46,389 bases of DNA from a virus. Its lineage: Duplodnaviria; Heunggongvirae; Uroviricota; Caudoviricetes. The stretch is from the IMG/VR virus record IMGVR_UViG_2850808358_000009. One strand, 5' to 3'. A program made the translations under genes and the position numbers. This document shows positions 10,639-20,393 of the stretch, one piece after another; position 1 is the first letter of the stretch, and each line of letters opens with the position of its first letter. Below the pieces are notes generated by a model that saw only the letters and a program-made list of their open reading frames with translations, ran no database searches and was not told the DNA's origin.

Positions 10639-12311
10639 CCTGTTACCCCGCTGGAATAAACCGACACAAGCGCCGAATTCGTGATACGCCGACGTGCGTC
10701 ATCGGTAATACCCTTCACATTGTCCGACGTTGTGGTGACATTCAGTGTCCCGATATGCGTGGTTTCCGTTACGGTGGACTGCGATACAGGCGCAGGATGG
10801 CGCGACCGTATGGCCATTGCCGCACCCGGATAAGGCAGGTTCGCCAGCACCCGCGGAATATAGTTGCGGGTCTCCTCCGGAGCAGCAGCCAGTCCCTTAC
10901 GCTGAACATTTCCCTCTCCCCAGTTATATGCCGCCAGAGCCTTAGCCAGATCGCCATGAAAAAAACGTATCAGGCCACCAAGTTTTCTCGCGGCGGCATC
11001 AGCGGCTTTTTCGGGATCAAAGGCATCGTTCCCCCTCAGACCAAATTCACTGGCCGTCTTCGGCATGAACTGAAACAGTCCCATCGCACCAGCAGGTGAG
11101 ACGGCAAACTGATTACCACGGGATTCGGTGATCGCAACGCTGCGCAGCAGTCCGGGCGGCAGGTTATATTTTTCCTCCAGTTGAGACAGTTTCGGTTGCA
11201 GCCAGCCTAACAGGGCTTCCCCGGTCTTCGTCGGTCGCTGGCGGTTTTGCATGGCATTACCGAGTTTTTCCTGCGTCGCACGCATACCCTGTAGCCAGGA
11301 TTCACCGAAGGCTGCTTCCCTCCCGGTTGCCTGAGAAGCCTGAGTATCCAGCATGCCCTGCTGCCATACTGTGGGTGATTGTGCCCGGGTGATGTTGCCA
11401 GGCTTTTCTCCGGCATCCAGTTTTGTCTGATACGTCTCCATCTCTTTCTTATTGAAAAAGAAAGTCCCGTCTGAAGCCCAGAAAAAACCATGTGAATCCA
11501 GCCAGTCCTTATTTTCCCTGCCAACAATGGATGTCAGTAATCCGTCAACAACCGGGTAAAGCGCCGTTATCGCAAAAAGAAGGCCTCCGGGGCCACTGAG
11601 GGCTTTTGTCAGCCCCCGCACCCATGACGCCACTTTCAGCCCGATCAGCGTAATAATGACATTCTGCCAGCCCCCCAGTTCTCCGGCAGCCTTATTCGCC
11701 AGGGAGGCCACTGACTCAACGTCATTCAGAAATGTGGTGATAAACCTGTTCACTTCCTCCGGATGTTGCTGCATCCAGTCACCGAGTGTCTCCAGCCAGT
11801 GGCTGAGCTTCAGCGCGTACGGCATCAACGTGGTGCTAATCGTCATCCCGATGCCGGACCAGGTCTGATCGAGCTCAACAAGCTCTTTTCGTAGCTTACG
11901 GGCCAGCGCTGTACGCCCCGGCGTAACCTGCGAACGGGAAGTAAATTCGTCCACATCTTTCAGCGCATGACCGGAGCCAAGAAACTGCTGTCCGGCATAA
12001 CTGAAGCCCAGCGCGTTGCCGTAGGCAGTTTGTTCGGACTTTGTCAGTCGCGGAAAAATAACCGCCAGCTTGCGCATGATGGCTTCAGTGCTGTCAGTAT
12101 TTAAATCAACACTAATGCCCGCCCTGGCTGCAACCTGAAACAAATCCTGTAACACAGGATCAAAGGACCTTCCGGCTCTGAAGGCCGCTTTTGCATTTGC
12201 AAGCCGGGAAAATGCCCCAGACATTTCCCCTTCATCAACATTATTTGCCCGCGCAGCCCGTAACCATCCGTCCAGATTTCTGGCCTTCATGCCAAAAGCA
12301 TCAGATTCCAC
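10635..12311 (-). CDS. Tape measure protein, main body with C-terminal lytic transglycosylase (SLT) domain; frame broken from its N-terminal part
   Basis: 558 aa; SLT motifs (ESRGNQFAVSPAGAMGLFQFMP...AYNWGEGNV) near the C-terminus; located between chaperone and baseplate genes. This frame is open upstream of the annotated start into the overlap with 12356..12655. Confidence 0.7.
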   Translation of the reverse strand: MESDAFGMKARNLDGWLRAARANNVDEGEMSGAFSRLANAKAAFRAGRSFDPVLQDLFQVAARAGISVDLNTDSTEAIMRKLAVIFPRLTKSEQTAYGNALGFSYAGQQFLGSGHALKDVDEFTSRSQVTPGRTALARKLRKELVELDQTWSGIGMTISTTLMPYALKLSHWLETLGDWMQQHPEEVNRFITTFLNDVESVASLANKAAGELGGWQNVIITLIGLKVASWVRGLTKALSGPGGLLFAITALYPVVDGLLTSIVGRENKDWLDSHGFFWASDGTFFFNKKEMETYQTKLDAGEKPGNITRAQSPTVWQQGMLDTQASQATGREAAFGESWLQGMRATQEKLGNAMQNRQRPTKTGEALLGWLQPKLSQLEEKYNLPPGLLRSVAITESRGNQFAVSPAGAMGLFQFMPKTASEFGLRGNDAFDPEKAADAAARKLGGLIRFFHGDLAKALAAYNWGEGNVQRKGLAAAPEETRNYIPRVLANLPYPGAAMAIRSRHPAPVSQSTVTETTHIGTLNVTTTSDNVKGITDDARRRITNSALVSVYSSGVTG

Positions 12312-12355
12312 GGACAGACGGTTCAGATCACGGGCAAAACCTGTTACCAGGTTCT

Positions 12356-12655
12356 TCAGCCCCCCAGCGTCAGACTGACACCCGCAAGAGCCAGAATCTC
12401 GCTACGGATCCCTGAAAAAAAACGGGACGCCCGTTTCCCGGCATCTTCCATTCGACGGGCCGTTTTATCAGCATCTTTTCCGGTTTTTTCCAGTGATTCA
12501 CTGGTTTTCTTCTGTCCCTGACTGAATGTGTCAGCGACACCTTCCATCACCGTCGTGAGCCGGTTAAGGGCAGCATGTACTGCCTGTTCCCCGGCAGTAA
12601 AGTCCCTGTCATCAATCCCGAGGGACAGAACAAGCTCATCAAGTACCTGCGCCAT
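12356..12655 (-). CDS. Tape measure protein N-terminal fragment
   Basis: 99 aa ending right after a G6 tract; typical TMP N-terminus; ATG overlaps the stop of the GT-extension frame. Confidence 0.55.
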   Translation of the reverse strand: MAQVLDELVLSLGIDDRDFTAGEQAVHAALNRLTTVMEGVADTFSQGQKKTSESLEKTGKDADKTARRMEDAGKRASRFFSGIRSEILALAGVSLTLGG

Positions 12656-12899
12656 TTCTGTTCTCCTGTATCACCTGTTCGTTATGGGCATCCACATGAA
12701 TTATTTCCAGCAGATCCCATAAGTCCTGCACACCAAGGACAGAATCCAGTTCAGCTTTTGAAGCCTTACCGGAGGAGATAACGGTCGCAATGGTACGGGG
12801 AACATTAACGTAATCCACCACCCCGAACGGTCTGTCGGGGTCGAGATAACGCGGGGGGATATCTAGCTGACGACGGTAGCGAAAAAATCCACATGCAGC
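12639..12899 (-). CDS. -1 frame extension of the tail assembly chaperone (gpT analogue; candidate G-T fusion product)
   Basis: ORF-track ORF 12639..12821 is in the -1 frame relative to 12863..13267; by my reading this frame is open from about 12899 and overlaps the chaperone 3' end across a GAUUUUUUC slippery-like sequence. Confidence 0.5.
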   Translation of the reverse strand, partial: AACGFFRYRRQLDIPPRYLDPDRPFGVVDYVNVPRTIATVISSGKASKAELDSVLGVQDLWDLLEIIHVDAHNEQVIQENRNGAGT

Positions 12900-13267
12900 T
12901 TAAAGACCTCCGCACGCAGATTAAGACGGGTAATGATTTCTTCAATATCCTCTTCAACAAGCGGTCTCCGGATGCTGCGTTTTTTCGGATCGGGAACAAA
13001 CTGCACACAGTCCATCATTTCATCCATCAACGGACGCGCCTCATCAGGCGGAATTTTCGATAATGCTTTCAGCCCTTCAAGGGCAAGCGCAGCCATCCCC
13101 AGACTACGAACATCATCCGGTAACTCCACGCCACCACGCCCCATTGCCATAATGGCACGCATCGCCCACCATTCCGCCTGTGAGGCAGACATTTCGGTAA
13201 GATGAAATACCTTGCCCTTATCCCGTCCCTGACCTTCAATAGTGATAAATTTCTCTTTACGGGCCAT
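12863..13267 (-). CDS. Tail assembly chaperone (lambda gpG analogue)
   Basis: 134 aa ORF between tail tube and tape measure; ends ...HVDFFATVVS just after a U-run. Confidence 0.6.
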   Translation of the reverse strand: MARKEKFITIEGQGRDKGKVFHLTEMSASQAEWWAMRAIMAMGRGGVELPDDVRSLGMAALALEGLKALSKIPPDEARPLMDEMMDCVQFVPDPKKRSIRRPLVEEDIEEIITRLNLRAEVFKLHVDFFATVVS

Positions 13268-13713
13268 CAGTTAAAAACCTCCGGAGTAATGGTTTCCCAC
13301 TCAATAACCGCCTGCCCTGGCTGCAACGTACGAGCTGCATCAGGCAGCGCTTTCCATTGTTTGAGTACGCCATTCACGCAGGTATATTTACGGCCAATCG
13401 CCGGAAGCAGGACGACAGCGTTACAACGGAATACAGCCCGACTGGCCCGGGATGTGGTTGACCAGGTATCAAAAATATCCCGGCTGGGGGAATCCGGCAT
13501 GATATGAAACGTCTGGATAATGTTGCTGTACACAAATCCCGCGGACAGTTTACCGTCAATACCGCGGGCAGTTTCCGCCAGTACCAGTGGATCGGTGCCA
13601 TAAACGTTATCTGTTGCAAATCCCTGAAGTCGTACGCCGGAGGGATACAGATTATTCACTGTCAGCGTGATAATGGCATCCGCCGCAGTGATGGTGTTGT
13701 TGTTACCCGACAT
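13267..13713 (-). CDS. Tail tube protein
   Basis: 148 aa ORF immediately downstream of the sheath gene. Confidence 0.55.
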   Translation of the reverse strand: MSGNNNTITAADAIITLTVNNLYPSGVRLQGFATDNVYGTDPLVLAETARGIDGKLSAGFVYSNIIQTFHIMPDSPSRDIFDTWSTTSRASRAVFRCNAVVLLPAIGRKYTCVNGVLKQWKALPDAARTLQPGQAVIEWETITPEVFN

Positions 13714-15198
13714 TTACTGGACCTCCGTGGATGCAATAACAAGTTTCTGGATACTACCGCCGTCACAGTACCAGAGCGTACAGGACGGACTGCTACGGGT
13801 TGCCCGCAAAGAGGGAAGCATATCGCCGATATACAGGTAATAGCCGGTGGCAAACAACGTTGAAGAAACATCTGCCCCCACAACATTGTTAATCTGTTTC
13901 TTCTGCGCCTCCGTCAGTGTCACCCCTTCACGGATCCCTCCCCAGCGTTTGTACTGCTGGATAACGTCACTCATTGACGCTGCAACCAGCGCCCGCCCTT
14001 CATTGTTGTAGGGGATCGTCTGGTTTGACTTGAATAACGCGATCACCGCCCCCTGCAAACTGGCATTCAGCCAGATTTGCCCGCAGAAACTGTCCAGCCA
14101 TTTAAAATCACCGGTAATAGTGCCATCCGCCCAGTAATCTTCCACCACACTGTTTTCCGCATATTTTCCGTAGAAATTGTAACCTGCGGCGATCAGCGCA
14201 TCATAATCGCTGCCACTGGTAACATCAGCGGCCAGCCCCTCATACTCGCGGAACTTGAATGATACACGCCCCTCTGGTCGGACAAAATCAAGGCACGCTG
14301 CATACCCCAGTACCGCTGCAGCCCGGTTACCATCAGTCGCGAAAACAGGTACAACAGAGCTGTAGTTATTGACAGCAATTATCTGGTAAGCGATGTGTTC
14401 AGTACTGCCTTTTACTCTGGCGTTGCCGCTGGTTGTCCATGCCACATAAAAGTAACGCTTGCCCTGCCCGTTTGCCCATGCAGAAAACGCCAGGTGTTGC
14501 TCGTCAGTGACCTCAGATACCGTGGAAAAACCCGCCCATTGCTGGGAAGCGGCCTTAATGGCTGCCATTGTGTCAGGGACATCAGATACAGGCGCGCCCC
14601 GGGATATCACCGCACCGGTGTTACTGGTCATCTTCAGGAGTTCTGCTGCCGATCCACTGCCGAACGTTATCGTGGTACTCCCGGGTTTCGCCCCGGCGAC
14701 AGTAATGACAAAAGCATTCTGTGTGGTATCGAATACCACTGTAGCCACTGCTGCGGTCAGCGCTGTCTGTAGTGCCGTTGCAGCAGCGGCGAAGCTGGCG
14801 ACACCGTTAAAATTCACTTCAATGCTGACGCTTTTCCCGTTAATACTCAGCATCAGCGTGCCGGAAAGTTTTTGTAGCTGTTCAACAGTCGCGCCCTTAA
14901 ACGAACCGCTACGTAACCAGGCCGCCGATGGGGCAGGACTGAAACGGGAAAACAACAATTGCCCCGGCGTCCTGGTGGCATTTTTGAAGCCCTGGAAATA
15001 AAGCTGAGCGCGTGCGTACTCATCGGATAATGCACCAAAATACGCGGCCACATCATCCGGAGAGGAAAACGGAACCACAGTGCCGACCGGAAGTAACGGA
15101 TTACTGGTCAACAGCAGGCCGTTAAGATCGACGGCATTACCCGCCACAGCCAGCACACCGGGATTTATCTGTACATCTTTACTGAGTGGAATTGGCAT
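13714..15198 (-). CDS. Tail sheath protein (contractile tail)
   Basis: 494 aa; size and position as the first gene of the tail block. Confidence 0.65.
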
Positions 15199-18972: not shown

Positions 18973-19851
18973 TCAGTAACCTCGTTTCAGTTTTGCACCG
19001 GGGAAATCTGCCGCAAACGTCGATGCGCTGGCCTGATCCATCGCCACACGGGGAGAGGATTTGGCCGTCTGCTTCTGCTCAACGGCAAACTTCACCATGC
19101 TGCGGTACGCACCGGGGTGAATACCCTGGATATCGATCCCCGTCTGTTCCAGCGCGGTACGGTAAACATCTTCGGCGCAGTCCATCGCCACCACATCGCC
19201 AATCAGCGGTCGCACTTCAGCTTCAGCCACACGGACGGCGCGGAAATTTTCAGCAGCCCGTTTCGTTGCCTGGTCAGTTGCCAGCCTGATTGCTGCATCC
19301 ATCGCAGGTTTATCGACTTTCACATCGTCGGGTTTCACATCAGCCTCTTTTGTTTCGGGGGCTTCGTCGGTTGTCGGAGACAGTGCGGATTTAATTTTTT
19401 CCAGCACATCATCAGGAACTTTGCCGGACAGCAACGCCAGTACACTTTCCATCGGGCTGTCGGTATCAAATGCCTTCGACTCGTCAGTTAACCCGGTATC
19501 ATCATCCCCGACCAGCTCCGGTACGGCTTCTGCTGATTCCATCAGTTGCGCCAGCTCCGCCGGTTCAATATCCATATCCTGTGCCAGCCGTTCGCTGTAA
19601 GCAGTTTTTACCGCGCTGGCGATAGCTGCCGGACGCTTATACTGCGCCATCAGGCGTAACAAATCCCCGGGAGCCGCATCCTGCGCCAGACGCGGCGCAA
19701 GATAGGTTCCCAGCGCGGTAAGCACCGCCACTTCTTTTTTACTCAGTTTCATGCGTTTTAGCTCCTGAGGGAGAGAGTCCATAACAAGACAGTCCGACCC
19801 TACCCGGCCATCGCCGACCAGGGCCACATGATTTCCCACGATATTCCGCAT
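18973..19851 (-). CDS. Scaffolding-like protein
   Basis: Acidic, Ala/Glu-rich helical protein upstream of the capsid gene; true start may be the internal MKLSKKEV methionine. Confidence 0.5.
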
Positions 19852-20393
19852 AACGCCGTCATACGGCTCACCGTCGGGGTGGTTCCCGGCGTCATATCTG
19901 CCACATAGGCATATGACGATGAGATTTCCCGTTGTTCATCCGTTTCTATCCCCGCGATGGCGGAGTTGTCCCAGATGGACATGCCATTAACCAGATAGGT
20001 ACCGTCAAACTCGCTGTTGGCATGAGTCGTCCCCACCCGGTACTCGCGCGCGGGCGCGCCCGGATAATCGGGTTTGTGTCGGCACAGGACGGGAATATTG
20101 TTGAAGGTTGAAACTGCCTTGCGCAGTTCATCGGGGTCACGGTAAAGCTGATAAAGTTTTTTGGGGTCGAGTCCCAGCGCTTCCGCCCCCGGTATTTCAT
20201 ACCCGAAATAACCGCAGACGTTCGCCTTGCTGAGATTACTGCGCTCAATCTGGAGGCGACCGACTTTATCGAACTGCCTTACCGATGCCCGGTCAAACGC
20301 CAGCATTTCGGTAATAATCATTTTTTCTCCAGTCCGGGAATAACGGCCTCCCAGCCACACCGGCAGTTGATTTCTTCGCCCGGCAGTACCCAC
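19800..20393 (-). CDS. Hypothetical head-assembly protein
   Basis: 197 aa ORF between the Mu F-like gene and the scaffold gene. Confidence 0.35.

Follow-up and report, generated by a model that had tools for sequence, protein, structure and literature searches.

The tail module of a myovirus-like prophage that carries an ipaH gene very probably uses a programmed -1 ribosomal frameshift like those of lambda (G/GT) and P2 (E/E+E′), as judged from sequence comparison. The site lies in a 46,389-nucleotide stretch of DNA, hereafter called the window, whose numbering is used throughout; genes are on its minus strand unless stated otherwise. According to the mechanism that we propose, most ribosomes would read the chaperone gene to its TAG and produce a G protein of 134 aa. 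A minority would pause with tRNA-Phe on UUU in the P site and on UUC in the A site of the heptamer U UUU UUC, after which both tRNA-Phe would re-pair one base back, on UUU UUU. Translation in the -1 frame would then pass the G stop and add 80 more codons, giving a GT protein of 209 aa. Lambda suggests roles for the two parts: the G part common to both products would serve to coat the tape-measure protein and the T extension to recruit the tube protein, and both G and GT would be absent from the virion. We infer that the slip is ribosomal in nature and that the G and T parts have these roles. By its anatomy and predicted function, the site belongs to the known G/GT (P2 E/E+E′) class, of which it is an ordinary and so far unannotated member, and we count it as a further case of a known kind because the frameshift of its homologue, E/E′ of Burkholderia phage BcepB1A, is already annotated.

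Anatomy of the slippery site and of the overlapping frames

The gene for the zero-frame product, a G-type tail assembly chaperone of 134 aa, occupies 12863..13267 (minus strand), and its ATG overlaps the TGA of the tube gene by one base. On the minus strand its 3′ end reads CTG CAT GTG GAT TTT TTC GCT ACC GTC GTC AGC TAG, exactly as quoted in the initial annotation of this DNA. The T run consists of six bases (12887..12882). Because its first T falls at position 3 of the GAT codon, T TTT TTC (12887..12881) forms an in-phase heptamer of the X XXY YYZ pattern. The slippery heptamer U UUU UUC (12881..12887, minus strand) thus spans the codons GAU UUU UUC, which encode D127, F128, and F129, and it lies 18 nt before the G stop, with 5 zero-frame codons in between. 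The -1 frame is open over 12639..12899 (minus strand) and contains the listed 12639..12821 ORF, with a TGA stop at 12641..12639. Its nearest upstream stop is located four codons before the heptamer, and none occurs between the heptamer and 12821. The initial annotation had proposed that the -1 frame is open across this region and continues as the 12639..12821 ORF, and that U UUU UUC fits the slippery pattern; both proposals hold. A -1 stop before 12821 and a T run of a length that does not form a heptamer, which it had named as observations that would speak against a shift, were both looked for, and neither was present.

The overlap between G and the -1 frame measures 37 nt (12899..12863) and is the only place where a slip could occur. 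With the -1 frame open down to 12639, a slip here would yield a fusion of 209 aa. This predicted GT protein (12639..13267, minus strand) comprises G residues 1-129 (13267..12881) followed by 80 residues read in the -1 frame from 12881, and its junction reads ...KLHVDFF/RYRRQLDIPP..., with the slash at the shift. The T extension after the slip corresponds to 80 codons (12881..12642), 73 of which lie beyond the G stop. In the ORFs of the window, in-phase heptamers occur at a rate of 0.005 per codon, which corresponds to a chance of about 6% for the 12-codon overlap. Taken alone, the heptamer is thus a moderate case, and the site is judged to be more than chance because of the comparative evidence presented below. 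The T run is six bases long in every near-identical locus and in nearly every relative, and its length is reliable despite homopolymer differences elsewhere in the window. A +1 frame was also considered and rejected, for it lacks conservation and ends 18 codons beyond the G stop.

Gene order of the tail module

The window represents a prophage with an integrase, a replication module (PolA, primase-polymerase, and DUF2800 nuclease), a head and tail module, and tail fibres. A tyrosine integrase gene (44517..45920, minus strand) lies at the end opposite ipaH; the gene for an ipaH-type T3SS effector, with LRR_TTSS and NEL E3 ligase domains (1..1812, plus strand), is found at the tail-fibre end. 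Within the tail module, the sheath gene (494 aa; 13714..15198, minus strand) matches Pfam DUF3383 (E=2e-140) and phrog_205, "tail sheath". The tube gene (148 aa; 13267..13713, minus strand), directly upstream of G, matches Pfam PF22764, E217_Gp32 (E=1.8e-17). On the other side of the T frame lies the tape-measure/lytic transglycosylase gene (10635..12655, minus strand), which carries an SLT domain and is present in two pieces, both matched by phrog_2013. This gene, also labelled "lytic tail protein", starts with an ATG at 12655 that overlaps with the last part of the T frame, and it is followed by baseplate genes. The order is therefore sheath, tube, G, T frame, and tape measure, with a gene pair between tube and tape measure. 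The initial annotation had likened the site to the conserved G-GT type frameshift between the tube and tape-measure genes of long-tailed phages, and this likeness is supported by the gene order and by the sequence comparisons.

The 148-aa product is named "tail fiber protein" by both Pfam (PF22764) and RefSeq, a naming error that is propagating in annotations. We read it as the tail tube because of its size, its position, and the comparison with the related Pbunavirus Pa193, in which a 150-aa tube stands beside a 504-aa sheath (PMC11456595).

With regard to the chaperone itself, phrog_1932, "tail assembly chaperone", matches G residues 1-131 (E=3e-59). Residues 149-208 of the fusion match phrog_3976 (E=4.5e-31), a PHROG of unknown function, and phrog_18181 (170 aa) covers both the G and T parts (E=5e-8). 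Searches with G/GT returned no family from Pfam at E<=0.01, no family from NCBIfam at E<=0.1, and no match among PDB sequences. This G/GT pair is thus predicted to function like the curated lambda and P2 chaperone families but is not a sequence member of them.

The heptamer is conserved at the nucleotide level

When 50,697 phage records were searched by tblastn with the predicted fusion, 134 of them gave a match, and in the best 40 of these the match was split over two frames at the same junction. A megablast search against phages gave no match. Among the best 120 of 345 matches to the fusion, all were G-only proteins of about 134 aa and none was a fusion; fusion proteins were found instead by tblastn in the phage collection. 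Loci were gathered from phages (13), genomic records (12), and IMG/VR (80), and 107 loci were examined, which gave 65 unique -1 ORF sequences. An in-phase heptamer was present within the G/-1 overlap in 62 of these 65 sequences. TTTTTTC was by far the most frequent type (50 sequences), followed by TTTTTTA (4), TTTTTTT (3), GGGTTTT (2), and TTTTTTG (1), and two sequences had two overlapping or adjacent heptamers. The GGGTTTT heptamer occupies the aligned site in Burkholderia, Aeromonas, and Acetobacter relatives and obeys the X XXY YYZ rule without a long homopolymer. Across 73 unique homologous loci (33-100% identity), the in-phase heptamer lies at the same aligned codons, the Klebsiella lineage excepted. 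The overlap and slippery site, for which a search in homologous tail modules had been suggested, do therefore recur. The slip is pinned to this site by several relatives in which the heptamer is the very point where the -1 frame opens, leaving an overlap of only 25 nt.

Of the three sequences that lack a heptamer, one (locus L087) has a premature stop in G and keeps the same GATTTTTTC junction. The other two belong to Klebsiella phages RCIP0114 (L006) and ST15-VIM1phi2.1 (L007), which have GCT TTT GTA around positions 1950..1977 of these loci. Only a U_UUU tetramer is left in this lineage, yet its -1 T frame is intact and conserved. The U_UU.U tetramer class is weakly shift-prone in E. coli (PMC4066793). 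The G protein of the Klebsiella lineage also has an insertion of about 26 aa.

Codon usage around the site was compared in the 73 unique sequences. Within the heptamer, the D127 codon was GAT in 66 sequences and GAC in none, and the F128 codon was TTT in 72 and TTC in none. Six codons upstream, F122 was encoded by TTC in 60 sequences and by TTT in 8. The intervening positions were similarly variable: H125 was CAT in 41 and CAC in 30, six different codons were used for L124, and all four Val codons were found at V126. Synonymous sites are frozen inside the heptamer and neighbouring sites vary freely, a pattern that argues for selection on the heptamer nucleotides themselves, beyond protein coding.

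The distance to the G stop was also recorded. In 64 of the 73 unique sequences, exactly 18 nt separate the heptamer from this stop, which is TAG in 63; in more distant relatives it is located 57-105 nt downstream. In the window, the G stop (12863..12865) is embedded in the conserved -1 codons CTA GAT, which encode Leu-Asp of the LDIPP motif.

A G/T split caused by a sequencing error or by pseudogene formation was considered and rejected, as 60+ independent sequences share the split together with the G stop and the heptamer.

The T frame as part of a fusion or as a separate gene

RefSeq annotates the -1 frame as a 60-aa ORF (WP_000228829.1; 12639..12821, minus strand) with a GTG start at 12821, and leaves as intergenic the stretch at 12822..12862 (minus strand), a 41-nt gap between the G stop and this GTG. 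Near-identical copies of the prophage are present in nine complete E. coli genomes, where RefSeq likewise gives two separate hypothetical proteins. An annotation of this kind amounts to two independent genes: the 60-aa ORF would be translated from a start of its own, the GTG at 12821, or by ribosomes that reinitiate past the G stop, and the presence of the heptamer would be incidental. RefSeq and 13 of 14 inspected phage records agree with it insofar as they give separate ORFs or leave the region empty; the short ORF forms a PHROGs family of its own, phrog_3976; and a heptamer is expected in the overlap by chance in about 6% of cases.

The variation upstream of the GTG tells against such an arrangement. 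Over the 14 codons of 12822..12862, the mean pairwise differences among 44 unique sequences were 0.26, 0.27, and 0.54 at -1 codon positions 1, 2, and 3, respectively. The 60-aa ORF showed a comparable third-position excess (0.28, 0.17, and 0.49). The motif R..LDIPP, which spans the G stop, is at least 90% conserved, and in nearly all loci the -1 frame runs without a stop from the heptamer to the T stop. This pattern suggests that 12822..12862, including LDIPP, codes in the -1 frame, and that 12639..12821 would be the C-terminal part of a T domain and not an independent gene. In an alignment of 12 fusions, residues N155, L174, D182, E188, and N196 of the T part are conserved.

The lack of signals for separate initiation also tells against two genes. 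An SD-like motif before the first possible T start was found in none of 62 unique sequences. The distance from the G stop to this first possible start ranges from 2 to 131 nt, the start often falls among conserved residues, and in two loci a start is lacking altogether. The frozen synonymous sites of the heptamer also speak against an incidental role, as do natural fusions in one frame. Such single-frame G+T proteins occur in Burkholderia phages Bcep781, Bcep43, and Bcep1 and in four Ralstonia phages. The predicted fusion is colinear through the junction with Bcep781 gp47 (E=3e-9) and with 2B_00022 of Ralstonia phage Bakoly (E=7e-16), and at the junction LHVDFFRYRRQLDIP aligns with LHVAFLTDREPLDIP in the single-frame homologues. 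Two independent genes are thus extremely improbable, and we read the T frame as the C-terminal extension of a frameshift product.

Efficiency and nature of the proposed slip

A downstream RNA stimulator was looked for in two ways. The fold of a 91-nt segment (12790..12880) was no better than that of shuffled sequences (z=-0.28), and RNAalifold predicted no pairs for 17 homologues. Upstream, a GGAGG motif was considered as an SD-like stimulator and rejected, being 19 nt away and absent from Pantoea PA-1 and others. The absence of a stimulator fits the low-efficiency slip that is typical of lambda G/GT, in which the G:GT ratio is approximately 30:1 (PMC5009743). In E. coli, U_UU.U_UU.C is a functional heptamer that gives more than 0.1% frameshifting without stimulators and is used by IS elements, and the class H_HH.U_UU.Y is among the most efficient (PMC4066793). 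As no stimulator was detected, the slip efficiency here would probably be a few per cent.

The same GT fusion would also result from transcriptional slippage, in which RNA polymerase stutters on the T6 run and some mRNAs receive one extra U. The site is indeed a homopolymer, a few relatives have T7, and E. coli genes contain fewer U7 and A7 runs than expected, an effect that may stem from such slippage (PMC4066793). A run of six, however, is shorter than the usual productive runs and falls below the length by which sites of this kind are recognized, a homopolymeric A/T run of about 8-9 or more in any codon phase. Productive slippage by bacterial RNA polymerase reportedly needs runs of about 8-9 as a rule (Baranov et al. 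2005). Furthermore, the base before the run is constrained here, as the X XXY rule demands, and the GGGTTTT sequence of some relatives is a canonical tandem-slip heptamer and a poor site for stuttering. Because the run is short, and because GGGTTTT replaces T6 in some lineages, transcriptional slippage appears very unlikely, and a ribosomal slip remains the reading that we prefer.

Comparison with known systems

Lambda is a siphovirus whose slippery site is G GGA AAG. The prophage differs from it in having a contractile tail and U UUU UUC as its heptamer, and sequence similarity between the two systems is not detectable (no Pfam match). The lambda G and GT chaperones are reportedly the subject of work by Levin, Hendrix, and Casjens (1993) and by Xu, Hendrix, and Duda (2004, 2013, and 2014). 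In both systems, two overlapping ORFs separate the major tail (tube) gene from that for the tape measure. They also share a second ORF without a start of its own, the lack of a strong RNA stimulator, and a short and a long product, predicted in the prophage, with a common N-terminal part (PMC5009743).

The resemblance to P2 includes the contractile tail, the order of sheath, tube, E/E′, and tape measure, and the lack of an initiation site for E′. The -1 slip in P2 takes place on a T-rich heptamer, TTTTTTG. E and E+E′ are said to have been described by Christie et al. in 2002. The sheath and tube of P2 belong to a different family (those here are DUF3383 and E217-like), and the searches gave no sequence match to P2 E. 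The efficiency of P2-type frameshifting is 2-3 times higher than that of lambda (PMC5009743).

A true homologue with the same gene order is found in Burkholderia phage BcepB1A. In its record (GenBank AY616033.2), gp15 E is labelled "pre-tape measure frameshift protein" and gp15′ E′ its "alternative C terminus". An in-phase AGT TTT TTC marks the start of the E′ feature, at the homologous spot and in the same phase as in the prophage. When the BcepB1A E+E′ protein is reconstructed, it can be aligned through the junction with the predicted GT (28% identity, E=4e-12). BcepB1A is nonetheless highly diverged, as only the C-terminal 125 residues align, and its E continues in the zero frame for 36 codons past the heptamer, compared with 5 here. 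Unlike the frameshift of BcepB1A, those of the E. coli prophage and of most relatives are not annotated.

Bcep781 gp47 and Bakoly 2B_00022 have G-like and T-like parts in a single ORF and need no frameshift; both lie just upstream of the tape-measure region. In Bcep781, the adjacent gp46 is a G-only paralogue with 27% identity to G residues 15-113 (E=7e-7). The Bcep781 genes gp47 and gp46 were examined at 2022..2941 of our locus L108 and the Ralstonia phage Bakoly at 1995..2962 of L110. In Bcep781, gp46 may supply the short form, so that two genes would replace the frameshift. In Bakoly, the ORF 2B_00021 lies at the position of gp46 and has the same length.

We tentatively suggest, while considering it doubtful, that this chaperone clade, found in DUF3383-sheath myoviruses and prophages, has three interchangeable ways of making short and long forms. 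Most lineages, including the present one, would use a stimulator-free tandem-slip heptamer; the Klebsiella lineage would rely on a bare U_UUU tetramer; and Bcep781 and the Ralstonia phages would dispense with recoding by means of an in-frame G-T gene beside a G-only paralogue. If true, the clade would be a natural experiment in the setting of the G:GT ratio and in the gain and loss of recoding.

A similar case has been made for the TAC-N/TAC-NC chaperones of Pakpunavirus and Andersonviridae, in which a downstream "hypothetical protein" is the C terminus of the long chaperone and GTTTTT is conserved near the 3′ end of TAC-N (PMC12846349). The kind of comparative argument is the same; the phages are unrelated large lytic myoviruses with another motif.

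Consequences for annotation

Our literature search found no description of a frameshift for the E. coli/Shigella prophage, Obolenskvirus, or the BcepB1A-like clade. The putative frameshift was missed in 13 of 14 inspected phage records and in the RefSeq annotation of E. coli. The main consequence therefore concerns annotation, as the second "hypothetical protein" would form the C-terminal domain in a frameshift product of 209 aa. A corrected annotation would assign a function to phrog_3976 and to the matching hypothetical proteins encoded by prophages of E. coli/Shigella, Salmonella, Serratia, Pantoea, Xenorhabdus, and Photorhabdus. The same applies to lytic phages under study for therapy, i.e., the Acinetobacter Obolenskvirus group and phages of Aeromonas, Edwardsiella, and Burkholderia. 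The understanding of tail assembly or of recoding is unchanged.

State of this prophage copy

The tape-measure gene of the window is split into ORFs of 99 aa and 558 aa at a G6 run (12360..12365, minus strand) that is one nucleotide short. E. coli CFSAN029787 and six other near-identical loci have G7 at this run and an intact CDS of 673 aa; no other difference from CFSAN029787 was found in the tape-measure region over 2.1 kb. Overall, the window is 99.46% identical to the CFSAN029787 prophage over 20.4 kb and differs from it by seven single-base homopolymer indels. Besides that in the tape-measure gene, homopolymer lengths differ at six positions (7955, 8057, 16343, 16575, 19875, and 24391 of the window). 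The genes split or altered by these six differences are a small one in the baseplate region, one that carries the RefSeq flag "frameshifted" in CFSAN029787, and the head gene with DUF2213, which is split into ORFs 18973..19851 and 19800..20393. The indels represent either sequencing errors or prophage decay. Because its tape-measure gene is split, this copy may be defective and perhaps no longer builds tails.

The frameshift site could then be a relic, i.e., a genuine G/GT site by descent that has no role in this host, its tail module being already inactivated. The seven indels in 20 kb, which split the tape-measure gene, the DUF2213 gene, and others, are in line with this, as is the attached ipaH effector gene. 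An ipaH cargo is typical of Shigella/EIEC prophage remnants. All of the indels, on the other hand, lie in homopolymers, which is also a signature of sequencing error, and the intact G, T, and heptamer do not differ from their counterparts in the other near-identical loci, including several E. coli genomes. A relic is thus possible, if rather unlikely, and it bears on the current activity of the element and not on its identity as a G/GT site. As for the ipaH effector gene, only its C-terminal part matches the ipaHa gene beside the CFSAN029787 prophage (97.8% identity), and the effector cargo of the two prophages therefore differs in the N-terminal LRR region.
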